Positions 1,414 through 9,085 of a stretch of 12,221 bases of DNA are shown piece after piece; the first letter of the stretch is position 1, and each line of letters starts with the position of its first letter. Under the pieces are notes generated by a model. That model worked only from the letters and a program-made list of their open reading frames with translations, searched no databases and was not told the DNA's origin. The translations under genes and the position numbers were made by a program. The stretch lies in the UHGV virus genome UHGV-0371394; one strand, 5' to 3'. The DNA comes from a virus.

Positions 1414-1490
1414 TGGCGCGTTGTACTGGATTCGAACCAGTGACCGATTGCTTAGAAGGCAATTGCTCTGTCCGGTTGAGCTAACAACGC
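1414..1490 (-). tRNA. tRNA-Arg (anticodon UCU, decodes AGA/AGG), phage-encoded
   Basis: Minus-strand 77-nt sequence GCGTTGT-TA-GCTC-AACCGGACA-GAGC-A-ATTGC-CTTCTAA-GCAAT-CGGTC-ACTGG-TTCGAAT-CCAGT-ACAACGC-G-CCA folds as a canonical cloverleaf: 7-bp acceptor, D loop with GG, TTCGAAT T-loop, encoded CCA. Confidence 0.85.
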
Positions 1491-1503
1491 AGGGTACAGA
1501 TAA

Positions 1504-1580
1504 TGGACCGCCATCGAGGACTCGAACCCCGCGCAACCAGCTTCGAAGGCTGGCGCTCTATCCTGATGAGCTAATGGCGG
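1504..1580 (-). tRNA. tRNA-Arg (anticodon UCG as read; decodes CGA/CGG), phage-encoded
   Basis: Minus-strand CCGCCAT-TA-GCTC-ATCAGGATA-GAGC-G-CCAGC-CTTCGAA-GCTGG-TTGCG-CGGGG-TTCGAGT-CCTCG-ATGGCGG-T-CCA. Acceptor stem perfect; T-stem has one G-U pair; 5' C is unusual, so boundaries and isotype should be confirmed with a tRNA finder. Confidence 0.7.
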
Positions 1581-1587
1581 TATGTGA

Positions 1588-1663
1588 TGGTGGCCCTTGC
1601 TGGATTTGAACCAGCGACCTGGCGATTATGAGTCGCTCGCTCTCACCACTGAGCTAAAGGGCC
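1588..1663 (-). tRNA. tRNA with CAU anticodon, most like tRNA-Ile2 (lysidine, decodes AUA; ileX/ileZ-like) rather than elongator Met
   Basis: Minus-strand 76-nt GGCCCTT-TA-GCTC-AGTGGTGA-GAGC-G-AGCGA-CTCATAA-TCGCC-AGGTC-GCTGG-TTCAAAT-CCAGC-AAGGGCC-A-CCA; the anticodon arm (GCGACTCATAATCGC) closely matches my recollection of E. coli ileX. Ile2 versus Met cannot be settled from the anticodon alone. Confidence 0.8.
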
Positions 1664-4735: not shown

Positions 4736-5058
4736 ACTTTCAGGCCCCTCTCATGTAACCAGTGGGCTGCACGCAGCCTTGCGTTTTCCTCACCGGCAAG
4801 CAGTGAGCGGATAATCCCGACCGCCTCGCTGTCGTCGTCCTTCACCGCGGTATGAAGCGTGATCCCCCGGGCCACACCACGCTTTATCGTGATGACGCCT
4901 TTTTTCTCCAGTGCGCGAAGATGCTCCACCGCTGCATTCACCGAACGGTATCCCAGCATGGTTGCCACCTCCTGATTGGTTGGCGGGAAGCCACGTTCTT
5001 TCTGATAAGAAATCAGCATATCCAGCACCTGCTGCTGGCATTGAGTTAACGTCGTCAT
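4732..5058 (-). CDS. LexA N-terminal DNA-binding-domain protein (winged HTH only, no S24 peptidase domain)
   Basis: 108 aa; MTTLTQCQQQVLDMLISYQKERGFPPTNQEVATMLGYRSVNAAVEHLRALEKKGVITIKRGVARGI aligns position by position with E. coli LexA residues 1-70 ([66 protein letters not shown], recalled), including the recognition helix S-x-NAA-x-EHL. ATGA overlaps at both ends. Confidence 0.7.
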   Translation of the reverse strand: MTTLTQCQQQVLDMLISYQKERGFPPTNQEVATMLGYRSVNAAVEHLRALEKKGVITIKRGVARGITLHTAVKDDDSEAVGIIRSLLAGEENARLRAAHWLHERGLKV

Positions 5059-5708
5059 GCCGCCATCTCCCTGACCAGTTTTTCCGCCTGCTGGCGAACC
5101 TGCGCCAGAAACGCCTCACCACATGCCTCAAGTTCATCGCGCCCGATGTAGCTGATTGCCGGTCCCTTCCAGGTCTTGTCGAAAACAGCAATAGCACCAG
5201 CGAAGAAAGCGCCTGTCGGCACCTGCTTCTCATCCTTCGGGATAAACCAGGCAGGCAGTTCAAAACCAATACGCCCGCGAATAAAAGCAATATGGTCCGC
5301 ATCTTCCGGCCACCACACTTCGCTGGTGGCAGCTTTGATCAGGAAAACATAGCGCCCGCCCTTATCACGCATGGCACTGGCATGTTTCATGATGTAACGC
5401 ATGCCGGTGATGTATTGCCCCTCATGCTGACTGGCGCGGCTGTATGGGGGATTACCAAAGGCAGCACCTTTAAGCTCCGCAAGACGTTCTGACCAGTCAT
5501 GCGCCAGCGCGTTATCTTCCGCCGTGTAATACGCGGCACATTTGGCGTTATCACCGTCAGTAAACAGATCCAGAACAAACGGGCCAAACAGGGTGTTAAT
5601 TCCCCAGAAAATGTTGTCCGGCGTGCGCCACTGATCGCCCGCTTCCTTCAGTTCATGGGCTGGTTTGTTCCGCAGTTCCGCCAGCGCCTGGCAATATTTA
5701 TTACTCAT
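5055..5708 (-). CDS. Phage DNA N6-adenine methyltransferase (Dam-like)
   Basis: Contains FGNPPYS (N/DPPY catalytic motif). ATG at 5708 overlaps the upstream stop as TAATG; an alternative GTG at 5741 with SD AGGTGA would add 11 codons. Confidence 0.7.
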   Translation of the reverse strand: MSNKYCQALAELRNKPAHELKEAGDQWRTPDNIFWGINTLFGPFVLDLFTDGDNAKCAAYYTAEDNALAHDWSERLAELKGAAFGNPPYSRASQHEGQYITGMRYIMKHASAMRDKGGRYVFLIKAATSEVWWPEDADHIAFIRGRIGFELPAWFIPKDEKQVPTGAFFAGAIAVFDKTWKGPAISYIGRDELEACGEAFLAQVRQQAEKLVREMAA

Positions 5709-6202
5709 TAAGCCCCCACGTAATTCCCTGAGAGATACCACTCTTCACCTGATGCAGCCCGCTTACTGCTTTTCCGTAAACACCGTTCACGACGCGCCAG
5801 AAAATTGTTTCGTTCTGGCTGGGAGTGGCTTTCACGGAATGCCGCCATCCACACGGTTGCAGCACGACGGTATAAGCCCCTGGACTCCAGTTCTTCAGCC
5901 TGGCGGGTCAGGCACAAAATCACCCGTGGATCGTTAGTGCCGACATAGAAATTGCGCACAGGTCTGGTTTCTCGAACTGGTTGTGGTTCCGGCTCCTGCG
6001 ATATCTCAGCCTGGCGCGGGAAATGTCTGCGTGTATCCCCTTCACAACGGTGAGCCACACGCCCACTCTGACGTAACTTGCTTGCTGACTGCAGAACGCG
6101 CTGCCGTGAGTAACCTGCAAAAGCATCCGCAATGTCTCCGGAAGTACACCCCGGATGGGCTTCAATGAATTTCTGAACGTCATTTAACAGACTCATGATC
6201 AC
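5708..6202 (-). CDS. PerC-family-like transcriptional regulator (N-terminal wHTH-like region plus C-terminal PerC/Pch-like segment)
   Basis: C-terminal LESRGLYRRAATVWMAAFRESHSQPERNNFLARRERCL resembles the conserved core of PerC/Pch regulators (recalled, not searched). Start is either GTG 6202 (GTGA overlap) or ATG 6196. Confidence 0.5.
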   Translation of the reverse strand: MIMSLLNDVQKFIEAHPGCTSGDIADAFAGYSRQRVLQSASKLRQSGRVAHRCEGDTRRHFPRQAEISQEPEPQPVRETRPVRNFYVGTNDPRVILCLTRQAEELESRGLYRRAATVWMAAFRESHSQPERNNFLARRERCLRKSSKRAASGEEWYLSGNYVGA

Positions 6203-7140
6203 CCTCTGAATCCTGCCGGGATCTGGCTGTAGTCCACGTTGTCGTAACTGGCTTTGAAGTACGGGTCCTCGCGTTTTTCGGTGTACGTGCTGACGGACGG
6301 CGATAAGCGCAGGGAAAGCTCATCCCATTTTTCCCGCAGCTTCGACGGGCTGAGCACGTTACGGCACCAGAACGGATCGCGGCTGACGCGGCTGTACATC
6401 TCGCAGATTTGTTTGTGAGTACGCCCATCCTGTACACACATCAGGCGAATTTCGTTTGCCCAGGCTGTCCAGTTAGGTTCTTTGGGACGAACCACCTCGC
6501 CGTCACATTCGGCAGCCTGCTCGTACAGGGCGATGATTTTTTTCCAGAGCCACTGTGCGCAGGTCAAATCATCCTGCGTCCCCCACTGGCGCTTTTTAGG
6601 GCTGAATACAACCGCATCAGGATGGCGAGTTAAAAAATCCTGTTCAGCCGTCTGCGTGTCCGGTTGCGAAGCGTCCGGACGAGAAGGTTTTTTATCTGAC
6701 GGATCATGTTTTGATTTTACTGACGGATCCCCGCCAGATTCTGACGGGTGAAAACCCGCTTTTTTGCCAGATTTCGACGCATCAAATTTTGACGGGTCAG
6801 ATTTTGATGCGTCAGATTTTGACGGGTCAGAATCTGACAGTTGAGAAAATGCCGCTGTCTGAAGCTTCGCAACGTTAAGCTGATAAACATTCGACGCATT
6901 GCGGTTACCCTGGCGACGCGCCTTACGCGTTAACCAGCCTTCTGCTTCCAGCCGTGCGATAGCCGTTCTGACGGTACTCATCCCCGCGCCAATCTGACGG
7001 GCAATGGTTTCAATTGATGGCCAGCACACACCTTCGTCATTACTGAAATCAGCCAGGCGGGCCATAATTGCCACGCTGGATAACTTCATGCCTGATGCAG
7101 CGCAACCATCCCATACATAGCCGGTTAATTTAGTGCTCAT
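6199..7140 (-). CDS. Replication initiation protein (HTH-domain initiator, lambda O functional analogue) with low-complexity repeat linker
   Basis: ATG at 7140; N-terminal winged-helix region (SSVAIMARLADFSNDEGVCWPSIETIARQIGAGMSTVRTAIARLEAEGWLTRK) typical of phage/plasmid initiators; central S/D/K/P-rich repeats encoded by tandem 15-bp DNA repeats; position right after the cro/cII-like genes. Confidence 0.7.
   Translation of the reverse strand: MSTKLTGYVWDGCAASGMKLSSVAIMARLADFSNDEGVCWPSIETIARQIGAGMSTVRTAIARLEAEGWLTRKARRQGNRNASNVYQLNVAKLQTAAFSQLSDSDPSKSDASKSDPSKFDASKSGKKAGFHPSESGGDPSVKSKHDPSDKKPSRPDASQPDTQTAEQDFLTRHPDAVVFSPKKRQWGTQDDLTCAQWLWKKIIALYEQAAECDGEVVRPKEPNWTAWANEIRLMCVQDGRTHKQICEMYSRVSRDPFWCRNVLSPSKLREKWDELSLRLSPSVSTYTEKREDPYFKASYDNVDYSQIPAGFRG
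6692..6843. repeat. Iteron-like array: at least 8 imperfect direct repeats (consensus about ATTYTGACGGRTC), the last five exactly 15 bp apart
   Basis: Cores at 6698, 6722, 6743, 6776, 6791, 6806, 6821, 6836; all spacings are multiples of 3 and lie in the initiator-gene linker, as lambda ori iterons lie inside O. Confidence 0.5.
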
Positions 7141-7149
7141 GACCGACCT

Positions 7150-7488
7150 CTATTTCCCTGAATTTACGACGAAACTGTTCGAGCGGACTGAAGCATTCAT
7201 GCTCATAACCTTCGCGGAGGTAGATAACCCGTTGTGTTTCCGGCTCCCAACGAATGACTCTGACGGGCACTCCGTAGTGATCTTTGAACCAGCGGTTAAC
7301 TTGTCGCAAAGGACTGTCTCCTTCTGCCGGTTGAAATCACCCACAGCCCACTCTGCAAAGCTGTGGGTTACAATTTCCCTGTCACCTGGTACATTCACTG
7401 CATAGCAATATTCCACCTTCGCTTTTCCACCCGGTACAGGAAGCGCAATCAGTTGCGAGCGACGGTAGTGTGTTGTTAAACTGTTCAT
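7150..7488 (-). CDS. Hypothetical early protein; 3' part of this frame looks non-genuine (possible frameshift, see findings)
   Basis: ATG at 7488 overlapping the upstream stop (ATGA). The first roughly 65 codons are protein-like; the C-terminal 45 are S-rich low complexity, while an alternative frame (7130-7309) is protein-like and ends 9 nt inside the initiator gene. Confidence 0.4.
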
Positions 7489-8042
7489 GCGTTAGTTTCT
7501 CCACAACCAGAAGCAATCGACGCCACGACGCCCGGAGCTGCACACTCGCGGGCGTCATTACTTTCTGAAATGCAAAAAATTTTGTAGACAAGTGCTGCAT
7601 GCTCCTGCAGCTTCGAAATTGAGAGATACAGCTCGTCGTTAATTGCTGTCTTCTCATGCGGTTCCACTACACCGTCTTCGATTGCTGAACGAATCTGTTT
7701 TGAATAACTGCCGATCTGTTCAATGACTTCCAGCAGACGCTGGTTAATATCGGCGTTGTCCACATCCTCGACGTCAGGAAGAGACACAAAGACGCCATTT
7801 GCAGACTGCGCCACAGCATCAGCAATGAAGTGAGTGCCACCAGCACGCTGTAAAACCATTGCCCATCCCAGCGGGAAAATCTGATCGCCATCTGCACGAA
7901 GGCGGTTGAATAAAGCGTTTTCTGTTACATCGAGCCAGTCAGCCGCTTCAGCGTAACCACCCGGCAACGCCGCGATAGTTTTTCTGACAGCTTTCACGTA
8001 CCACTCAGGCTGTTTTTCTATTTTCCAGTGATGCTTACCCAC
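7485..8042 (-). CDS. Hypothetical early regulatory protein at the cII position (possibly CII-like / Phage_CP76-like)
   Basis: 185-codon ORF starting at GTG 8042 with strong SD AGGAGGT 6 nt upstream; immediately downstream of the cro-like gene. Family assignment is by position and weak recollection only. Confidence 0.45.
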
Positions 8043-8295
8043 GGCTTACCTCCTGTTCCTGTGGTTTTAACTCATTCCGGTTTTGACTAGATTGAAAGCG
8101 TGCAGGATAGAGAATCTGCATTTCGCTGATTTCTCCCTTAAAAAAATTGGCCAGACGCTCTGCAAGATCGATAGATGGAATTTGTTCCAGTCTCTCAATA
8201 CGACTCAGCGTTGCTGGATTAACCTGAACGCCCGCAGCAACATGCTGCAAAGTAAACCCGTGCGCCTTACGCACATTTCGTAATGGTGATTGCAT
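8035..8295 (-). CDS. Cro-like HTH (XRE-family) repressor, divergent from cI
   Basis: 86 aa; ATG 8295 with GGAGG SD; HTH segment RKAHGFTLQHVAAGVQVNPATLSRIE; divergently oriented to the CI repressor across an operator region. Confidence 0.75.
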   Translation of the reverse strand: MQSPLRNVRKAHGFTLQHVAAGVQVNPATLSRIERLEQIPSIDLAERLANFFKGEISEMQILYPARFQSSQNRNELKPQEQEVSRG

Positions 8296-8392
8296 ATAAC
8301 CTCCACATATTGCGTGATGAGCATATTATTTCACGCAAATATTTTGCGCAAGTTGATTTGCTTAACGCGCAATAAAGAAATGTAATAAACGC
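8296..8392. promoter_or_regulatory. OR region: divergent promoters (pR towards cro, pRM towards cI) with operator half-sites TTGCG/CGCAA
   Basis: Inverted repeat TTGCGTGA-N13-TCACGCAA (8310-8338), palindrome TTGCGCAA (8344-8351) and 15-bp site TTGCTTAACGCGCAA (8358-8372) sharing TTGC-N7-GCAA with the OL sites. Candidate pR on the minus strand: -35 TTGCGC, 17-nt spacer, -10 TAATAT. Candidate pRM: -35 TTGCTT, -10 GTAATA ending about 6 nt before the cI ATG. Confidence 0.6.
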
Positions 8393-9085
8393 ATGAACAT
8401 AGGAAATCGAGTCAGACAACTTCGCCAGGCGAAGAACATGAAAATCGCCGATCTCGCTGAAGCAATAGGAGTGGATGCGGCGAATATCTCACGCCTGGAA
8501 ACAGGTAAGCAGAAACAATTCACTGAACAAGCCCTGAGTAATATTGCCAGGAGCTTAGGTGTTGATATTGCTGATCTCTTTACCTCAGACTTCAAAAGTA
8601 ATACTGTATGTAAAAACAGTATTAGTGAGGATGTTGCGCAGGTGAAGGATGTATTCCGTATTGAAATGCTGGATGTCAGTGCCAGTGCGGGAAATGGCCT
8701 TATCCAGGGCGGTGATGTCATTGATGTGATTCATGCCATTGAATACAGAACTGATAATGCTGTATCGATGTTTGGCGGACGACCAGCCAATCACATTAAA
8801 GTTATCAACGTTCGTGGGGACAGTATGTGTCCAACCATTGAGCCAGGAGATCTCATCTTCGTTGATGTCAGTATCAATCAGTTTGATGGAGATGGTATCT
8901 ATGTATTTGGTTTTGATGATAAAATTTATGTCAAACGACTGCAAATGATACCTGACAAACTACTGGTGATTTCGGATAATCAGATTTACCGTGAATGGGG
9001 AATTACCAGCGAAAATGAACACCGGTTTATGGTCTTTGGAAAGGTCTTAATCAGCCAGTCACAAACCCTTAAGCGACACAATTAA
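8393..9085 (+). CDS. cI: CI-type phage repressor (N-terminal HTH_XRE, C-terminal S24 LexA-like autopeptidase domain)
   Basis: 230 aa; N-terminal HTH (MNIGNRVRQLRQAKNMKIADLAEAIGVDAANISRLETGKQ); C-terminal VRGDSMCPTIEPGDLIFVD...KIYVKRLQ with the Ser/Lys dyad context of S24 peptidases; flanked by the OR and OL operator sets. Confidence 0.9.
   Translation: MNIGNRVRQLRQAKNMKIADLAEAIGVDAANISRLETGKQKQFTEQALSNIARSLGVDIADLFTSDFKSNTVCKNSISEDVAQVKDVFRIEMLDVSASAGNGLIQGGDVIDVIHAIEYRTDNAVSMFGGRPANHIKVINVRGDSMCPTIEPGDLIFVDVSINQFDGDGIYVFGFDDKIYVKRLQMIPDKLLVISDNQIYREWGITSENEHRFMVFGKVLISQSQTLKRHN
8602..8621. promoter_or_regulatory. LexA (SOS) box-like palindrome TACTGTATGTAAAAACAGTA inside the cI coding sequence
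   Basis: Matches CTGT-N8-ACAG with flanking TA on both sides; 17/20 identical to the E. coli SOS-box consensus TACTGTATATATATACAGTA; lies in the cI interdomain linker codons (TVCKNSI). Confidence 0.5.

Follow-up and report, generated by a model that had tools for sequence, protein, structure and literature searches.

A repeat array within the initiator gene

The stretch of DNA analysed here (the window, 12,221 nucleotides of the virus genome UHGV-0371394) comes from a lambdoid prophage of the SfII/SfIV/KplE1 type, of which it represents the early-right region. It carries a replication initiator gene with a cluster of short direct repeats in its middle, and we propose that these repeats probably serve as iterons of the prophage's replication origin, which would then lie inside the gene for its own initiator. 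The gene matches PHROG 391 ('replication initiation O-like') with E 1.7e-135 and is 98–99% identical to its counterparts in the phages SfII, SfIV and Kati. Its product is composed of a winged-helix N-terminal domain, a linker encoded by the repeats, a lambda-O-like C-terminal domain and a short tail resembling the end of the host protein DnaT. Pfam places HTH_36 (PF13730) at residues 23–70, and the AlphaFold model extends the N-terminal domain over residues 1–98. In the same model, the repeat-encoded residues 103–162 have a predicted local distance difference test score (pLDDT) below 50 and are predicted to be disordered, residues 164–278 form a confident helical domain, and the last 24 residues are of low confidence. 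BLASTP aligns residues 131–277 with the C-terminal domain of lambda O (36% identity, E 1e-25), in line with the comparison with lambda drawn in an earlier note on this DNA, and the C-terminal domain also aligns with that of phi80 gp15 (36% identity, E 4e-25). A sequence search of the PDB with the initiator returned weak MarR-type matches to the N-terminal domain, and neither DnaT nor a solved O-like C-terminal domain. The features of the gene are as follows.

6199–7140, minus strand: replication initiator gene, 313 codons (open reading frame and translation)
6847–7140, minus strand: N-terminal winged-helix DNA-binding domain, residues 1–98, the presumed iteron reader
6766–6837: five putative iterons of 15 bp, head to tail (repeat finding and core search)
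6826–6837, coding strand: putative iteron core TCAGATTCTGAC
6811–6822 and 6796–6807, coding strand: putative iteron cores TCAAAATCTGAC
6781–6792, coding strand: putative iteron core TCAAAATTTGAT
6766–6777, coding strand: putative iteron core TCGAAATCTGGC
6694–6756: single-copy block conserved as DNA (codon entropy, third-position identity and per-column profile)
6733–6744: sixth putative iteron core, TCAGAATCTGGC, in the single-copy block, 33 bp beyond the array
6702–6705 and 6726–6729: two GATC (Dam) sites in the single-copy block
6682–6721: 40-bp duplex of lowest stability and highest A+T content in the gene, candidate unwinding region, at the promoter-distal edge of the repeats
6307–6651, minus strand: C-terminal domain of lambda-O/phi80-gp15 type, residues 164–278 (BLASTP; pLDDT 86–96)
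6202–6273, minus strand: C-terminal tail REDPYFKASYDNVDYSQIPAGFRG, residues 290–313, which closes with the C-terminal motif conserved in host DnaT

The earlier note, made from the letters alone, had described at least eight approximate copies of ATTYTGACGGRTC in one orientation, the last five of them spaced by exactly 15 bp. With up to two mismatches, this motif matches the plus strand at 6693, 6717, 6738, 6771, 6786, 6801 and 6816, which accounts for seven of the copies; the eighth, at 6831, has four mismatches to ATTYTGACGGRTC but only two in the register derived from the gene family (6826–6837). When three mismatches are allowed, ATTYTGACGGRTC is found 27 times against 9.6 ± 3.0 expected, a number reached in none of 200 shuffles. 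The register of the whole family defines a 12-bp core on the coding strand, TCAAAATCTGAC, for which the 12.2-kb window contains nine matches with up to two mismatches (1.27 expected; 0 of 200 shuffles reach nine), eight of them within 6733–6838. Tandem Repeats Finder reports 6768–6831 with a period of 15, 4.3 copies and 81% matches, and scores the same segment as period 30 too. Five cores start at 6826, 6811, 6796, 6781 and 6766, precisely the regular spacing claimed, and each iteron has an imperfect dyad of the form TCA-N5-TGA.

All repeats share one orientation and lie in frame, the 15-bp units being translated as D-x-S-K-S pentapeptides. They encode residues 101–149, between the N-terminal domain and the C-terminal domain, and translation, Pfam and the AlphaFold model agree with the earlier description of a repeat-encoded linker between a helix-turn-helix domain and the C-terminal domain. 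The single-copy block contributes, in addition to the sixth core, two GATCCGTCAG half-sites, each of which is preceded by GATC. Five tandem cores, one separate core and two half-sites are found in the middle of the initiator gene, within 6694–6837. Tandem Repeats Finder and the core search detected no other repeat cluster of the iteron kind in the 12-kb window. Weak motif copies at 6965 and 6991, in the part encoding the N-terminal domain, were rejected as chance matches, codon usage there varying freely in the family; a weak copy at 7257 was treated likewise.

Conservation at the level of DNA

Homologues were sampled by a scan with the N-terminal domain in which one genome per species was kept, giving 79 loci. 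In 67 of the 79, from many Enterobacterales genera, the N-terminal domain (68–99% identical), the array and the block occur together, whatever C-terminal domain follows them. The repeat number among these relatives, another point raised in the earlier note, ranges from 3 to 9 D-x-S-K-[SF] units, with array lengths varying in 15-bp steps; the block peptide F[HD]P[SP]ESGGDPSV is invariant in all 67. Codon statistics were obtained from 54 non-redundant homologues, e.g. from Citrobacter, Kluyvera, Yersinia, Providencia, Proteus, Rahnella and Pantoea. At conserved residues, the normalised codon entropy of these genes is 0.14 in the single-copy block as opposed to 0.81 in the N-terminal domain (Mann–Whitney, nominal p = 4e-8), and the pairwise third-position identity is 0.89 as opposed to 0.44.

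A logo built from the 275 repeat units of the 54 genes exhibits the same feature. The triplets TCA, AAA, TCT and GAC are conserved with their third codon positions included: Ser3 is encoded by TCA in 92% of the units (17% in the background), Lys4 by AAA in 100% (63%) and Ser5 by TCT in 75% (9%), and AGY serine codons, which make up 47% of the background, do not occur at all. The encoded peptide is loose, with K, E, N or D at position 4 and A, P, T, G, L or R at position 2. Conservation of synonymous sites alongside such radical residue changes (K/E/N/D) points to a cis-acting DNA element. The D-P dipeptide provides a further contrast, its aspartate codon being GAC in 43 of 43 cases in the array (GAC-CCG) and, at the two positions of the block where a GATC site results, GAT (101 times).

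The comparison with the phage phiNP leads in the same direction. Among codons for identical amino acids, synonymous differences between the two initiator genes number 5 of 51 in the linker and 40 of 84 in the N-terminal domain (Fisher, nominal p = 4e-6), whereas non-synonymous changes are relatively commoner in the linker (12 of 63, against 13 of 97 in the N-terminal domain). Nucleotide identity to phiNP is 0.93–1.0 over the repeats and 0.70–0.83 in the flanks. A per-column profile of the family places the constrained DNA at about 6694–6843, essentially the coordinates given in the earlier note, and within the block, invariant synonymous positions alternate with freely varying codons at the scale of single nucleotides. 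From this sequence evidence we conclude that purifying selection across genera acts on the repeats as DNA, i.e. as a cis-acting element, and that the peptide is largely a by-product.

The GATC sites follow a pattern of their own. Exactly two are present in the block in 45 of the 54 family genes, and nearly all genes keep them; the array is free of GATC in 51 of the 54. Downstream of the initiator, at a distance of one or two genes, there is a gene for a Dam-type methylase, which in many loci directly overlaps the initiator stop codon. Control of the origin by methylation is possible.

Proposed origin of replication and alternative explanations

For lambda, phi80 and P22, it is textbook knowledge that the origin consists of iterons within the initiator gene. 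We assign a probability of roughly 75% to the reading that the repeats described here are the iterons of a prophage origin. As the earlier note had pointed out, they occupy the place of the lambda iterons, and the same is true for the gp15 sites of phi80. In lambda, four annotated iterons are found in the middle of gene O, between the N-terminal domain and the homologous C-terminal domain; the repeats are each dyad-symmetric within themselves, DNA that melts easily is present on the promoter-distal side, and the gene belongs to the pR operon after cro and cII. Lambda differs in its PF04492 N-terminal domain, in its iterons of about 19 bp spaced 20–24 bp apart, in its stronger A+T-rich region, in the P gene that follows, and in an O protein devoid of the DnaT-like tail. 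In phi80 gene 15, four annotated gp15 sites are in frame, with 21 bp encoding seven amino acids and a repeated peptide FPKTGKS, which makes them a direct precedent for the 15 bp and five amino acids (D-x-S-K-S) of the present array; phi80 differs in its PF04492 N-terminal domain, its repeat TTCCCGAAAACGGGAA and a P-like gene 14 downstream. Gene 18 of P22 and gene 18 of phage L likewise have their own repeats inside the coding region of a distantly related initiator. However, P22 and phage L encode a DnaB-type helicase (gene 12), whereas neither helicase nor loader is encoded here. For phage L, an origin with six 11-bp repeats has been inferred from the sequence (PMC8022706), and the argument made here for a putative origin is of the same kind.

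Initiators with other N-terminal domains were searched with a repeat finder that also recovers the lambda iterons, and private repeat families were found at the same position in mEp460_4F5 (23 bp, 5–6 copies), in SfV and in the loci L081, L082, L083 and L084. Two mosaic relatives separate the parts of the gene. The phage phiNP combines the common N-terminal domain and repeats with a different C-terminal domain; the segment it shares is restricted to 6662–7139 (L004, 82.5%). Conversely, mEp460_4F5 has the common C-terminal domain and tail with another N-terminal domain and other repeats, and shares only the C-terminal half, 6199–6698 (L005, about 97% nucleotide identity). These combinations indicate that the repeats travel with the DNA-binding domain. 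Moreover, the TCA-N5-TGA core is kept in phiP27, the N-terminal domain of which is only 60% identical. The junction between the exchanged modules, a sharp one, is found at the promoter-distal edge of the repeats, i.e. module exchange has its boundary at the proposed origin segment. At the same edge lies the 40-bp duplex that is the least stable in the gene (6682–6721); its nearest-neighbour free energy of −47.0 kcal/mol compares with a window mean of −55.5 ± 3.9 and falls in the 98th percentile; the G+C content is 0.325 at 6680–6719. The plaque-forming phage LLS possesses the same N-terminal domain, array, block, tail and O-only module, that is, an initiator gene with no loader gene, and such a module thus functions in a live phage.

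Several observations weigh on the other side. The A+T-rich stretch is modest, with only about 67% A+T, and far weaker than that of lambda. The head-to-tail spacing of 15 bp is tighter than in lambda (20–24 bp) or phi80 (21 bp). The sole Pfam match of the N-terminal domain is PF13730, and not the PF04492 that both lambda O and phi80 gp15 match, so the analogy rests on architecture and on the C-terminal domain. The codon p-values are nominal and uncorrected for phylogeny or concerted evolution, the repeat units being related by descent and duplication, a problem from which the single-copy block is free. Synonymous conservation as such signifies a function at the level of nucleic acid without saying which, and our literature search found no paper describing an origin of this initiator family. 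Further searches of the window were negative: a DnaA-box search gave a single match at chance level (470–478) and none near the initiator, a promoter scan found no promoter-like site within the repeats, and an Rfam scan yielded no match in the initiator gene. With neither an Rfam family nor a DnaA box, these searches offer no alternative reading. A search of plasmids for a small replicon using this initiator alone retrieved only prophage-like copies in large records, a result that speaks neither for nor against an origin.

The observation that conservation of DNA does not reveal its function is also the starting point for the view that the repeats are a protein-bound cis-acting site with a role other than that of an origin, such as autoregulation or a roadblock of pR, handcuffing for copy-number control, or a switch sensitive to Dam and SeqA, with replication starting elsewhere. 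The two GATC sites and the neighbouring Dam gene would fit a regulatory methylation switch, and plasmid iterons are known to do both jobs. We nevertheless consider a purely non-origin role unlikely, in view of a position whose homologues in lambda and phi80 are mapped origins, the least stable duplex adjoining the array, and the absence of any second repeat cluster in the window and of a DnaA box near the gene. The conserved nucleotides might instead act in the mRNA, for example by folding into a structure, by pausing translation or by serving as target for an antisense RNA, and it is true that the array is rich in inverted repeats and that a terminator-like hairpin, CGGGTGAAAACCCG followed by T6, is encoded on the plus strand, antisense to the initiator, at 6745–6758 in the spacer between array and block. 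This hairpin is probably fortuitous; it lies partly in a spacer that varies in the family, and terminator-like sites are only weakly above shuffled sequences (6 against 2.8 ± 1.5, with 6100–8500 scanned). Since, in addition, no Rfam family matches the region and a directly repeated, dyad-like 12-mer has the form of a protein-binding site, hardly any weight can be given to an RNA function.

Two further explanations would dispense with a function of the nucleotides themselves. The repeats could be the mere footprint of a disordered protein linker that grows and shrinks by replication slippage, as the predicted disorder, the D/S/K/P-rich composition and the variation in 15-bp steps would allow. 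However, the synonymous sites are nearly frozen whereas amino acids change radically, the codons chosen for the same D-P dipeptide (GAC or GAT) depend on its position, and the core survives in phiP27 despite its diverged N-terminal domain. The codon bias of the repeat units and the low codon entropy of the single-copy block, which slippage cannot homogenise, largely refute this explanation, and we regard functionless DNA as exceedingly improbable. The high DNA identity might alternatively stem from recent recombinational spread of a linker at a module boundary that promotes mosaic exchange; proposals on lambdoid mosaicism have invoked conserved sequences at module boundaries, and the segment sits exactly where C-terminal domains are swapped. 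Yet the alternation of invariant and free codons at single-nucleotide scale in the block reflects constraint site by site, lineages differ in copy number and in the variable x codon but not in the core, and with a third-position identity of 44% in the N-terminal domain, each lineage would have required repeated double crossovers within about 150 bp. Such a spread is therefore very unlikely to account for the pattern.

A replication module without a helicase-loader gene

The genes surrounding the initiator are arranged as follows, in the same order as in the SfIV record.

8393–9085, plus strand: cI-like repressor
8035–8295, minus strand: cro-like gene
7485–8042, minus strand: CP76/cII-like gene
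7150–7488, minus strand: open reading frame of 112 amino acids (PHROG 1170), directly upstream of the initiator
5708–6202, minus strand: PerC-like protein (Pfam search)
5055–5741, minus strand: Dam-type N6-adenine methyltransferase (Pfam search; PF06069/PF05869 for the pair of PerC-like and Dam genes)

The Dam gene is followed downstream by genes for a protein with a LexA DNA-binding domain and for RusA, and then by KilA/Rha-like, HNH and Q-like genes. Further on, past the Q-like gene, Rfam detects the small RNA STnc100 (140 bits) and three tRNA genes at 1138–1337 and 1417–1663 (both minus strand), an arrangement that can be likened to many late-region leaders of Stx-type and lambdoid phages.

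The claim in the earlier note that no helicase-loader gene follows the initiator is sustained by negative tblastn and Pfam searches of the window, the downstream genes being those just named. Searches by tblastn with lambda P and the E. coli proteins DnaC and DnaB found none of these in the window, SfIV, phiNP, mEp460_4F5 or SfV, and no helicase or loader gene is listed in the annotated region of LLS. So-called O-only modules have been described in 34 of 314 lambdoid phages, including LLS, with the remark that their replication is not understood (Zheng, Casjens et al. 2025, PMC12315714); the word 'iteron' is absent from the text of that paper. Gene 44 of LLS resembles the present initiator in its N-terminal domain (81% identity over residues 1–161), its array and block, its ...KIPEGFRG tail and the lack of a loader gene after it, but differs in having a C-terminal domain of Phg_2220_C type and not of lambda-O type.

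In related loci, a homologue of the 7150–7488 reading frame (PHROG 1170) is found directly upstream of the initiator about 45 times, e.g. as gene 43 of LLS, and another homologue forms the N-terminal part of an Ash+Rha regulator in phages of the SfV, cdtI and ST64B types. We considered the product of this reading frame as an analogue of P, as it accompanies most tail-bearing initiators, and provisionally rejected it; in view of the Ash+Rha fusion in SfV-type phages, a regulatory role is likelier.

The initiator ends in ...DYSQIPAGFRG, and its last nine residues, SQIPAGFRG, are identical to E. coli DnaT (SQIPPGFRG) at eight positions, the BLASTP similarity being confined to these nine. The tail of another family member, ERDINAISRPDTSIPPGFRG, aligns with DnaT over 20 residues (E 5e-8). 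Compared with DnaT, whose last 7–20 residues share the motif (RD.N..S.PD..)IP.GFRG with the initiators, the DnaT N-terminal domain (oligomerisation), acidic PriB-binding linker and three-helix DNA-binding domain PF17948 are not present in the initiator; no DnaT domain was found in it either by Pfam (no PF17948) or by the PDB search. Across 104 DnaT clusters, RD.N..S.PD..IP.GFRG does not vary. The name 'primosomal protein (I)' in the records of SfIV, SfII, Kati and mEp460_4F5 rests solely on the nine-residue tail match, which explains a database name that is otherwise unjustified given that a DnaT domain is lacking.

The same tail occurs on three unrelated C-terminal domains; the SfV initiator, with a C-terminal domain unrelated to the present one, has the identical 24 residues at its end, and that of phiNP a related tail. 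It was detected in 57 records of the phage collection, at the 3' end of the initiator gene in every annotated one. With loci and phages taken together, a P, DnaC or DnaB gene was found nearby for none of 53 tail-bearing initiators and for 9 of 31 tail-less ones, namely those of lambda, phi80, phiP27, L049, L055, L058, L083, L084 and L085 (Fisher p = 5e-5, uncorrected for phylogeny); five further annotated tail-bearing records are all without a loader. Our literature search returned no published function for the DnaT tail or the last 20 residues, and a 2026 preprimosome paper is silent on it. We tentatively suggest that the O-only module may work through this tail, which would engage the host partner that the tail of DnaT itself normally contacts (PriA/PriB or DnaB–DnaC) and so load the helicase at the iteron origin without a phage P, DnaC or DnaB, although we regard this idea as rather less than an even bet. 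A second class of initiators (335–350 residues; L019, L025, L026, L043, L050, L053, L054 and L060–L072) is devoid of the GFRG tail and ends in ...[FY]A.SRWN.IWKE... or ...GRKAW.GIWQQ..., with two types of C-terminal domain and no loader gene nearby. The existence of a second loader-less class with a different end motif (...WNAIWKE...) means that the DnaT-like tail is not the sole solution.

We propose the following hypothetical sequence of events, in which (i) the pR operon, for which the order cro, cII-like gene, small open reading frame and initiator on the minus strand is observed, would express the initiator; (ii) its N-terminal winged-helix domain would bind the 12-bp core TCAAAATCTGAC at the five tandem copies, the one separate core and the two CCGTCAG half-sites; (iii) the resulting nucleoprotein complex would destabilise the adjoining A+T-rich stretch at 6682–6721; and (iv) the C-terminal part of the initiator would recruit the host helicase, for which the DnaT-like tail appears to be the likeliest handle. 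Lacking P, DnaC and DnaB genes of its own, the phage must depend on host proteins for this last step. More speculatively, in view of the two GATC sites and of the Dam gene that such modules carry, the origin might be modulated by its methylation state.

The initiator family is widespread. Matches to the initiator comprise 2374 protein clusters, and the segment spanning the repeats (6560–6960) is matched in 2957 of 5426 complete E. coli genomes. Among the carriers are CPS-53, a cryptic prophage of K-12, phage LLS, and the Shigella phages SfII and SfIV, which convert the serotype of their host. In K-12 MG1655 (L090; 2473239–2473586, CPS-53/KplE1, yfdO region), the initiator is truncated to its C-terminal part and the N-terminal domain is lost; the repeat array of this yfdO copy is intact, with 98.6% identity.

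In summary, the repeats are confirmed, and sequence comparison supports the reading as an iteron origin. As a kind of element, an iteron origin within a gene is already known, and it is the specifics of the proposed origin that are apparently undescribed, namely its own 12-bp core, the tandem spacing of 15 bp, the GATC-bearing block and an HTH_36 protein as the putative reader. The array and block provide a clear example in which overlapping DNA sites dictate the sequence of a protein linker, which calls for caution when 'low-complexity' repeats in initiators are interpreted or such genes are recoded. If the proposed role of the tail is true, it would account for replication in a class that makes up about 10% of the lambdoid phages, and the DnaT tail, as yet uncharacterised, would acquire a function. 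The family is common and forms part of a loader-less module whose replication has been called not understood (PMC12315714), and with the presumed cis element narrowed to about 150 bp and its 12-bp core defined, a substrate is available for studying how lambda-like phages without a loader gene replicate.

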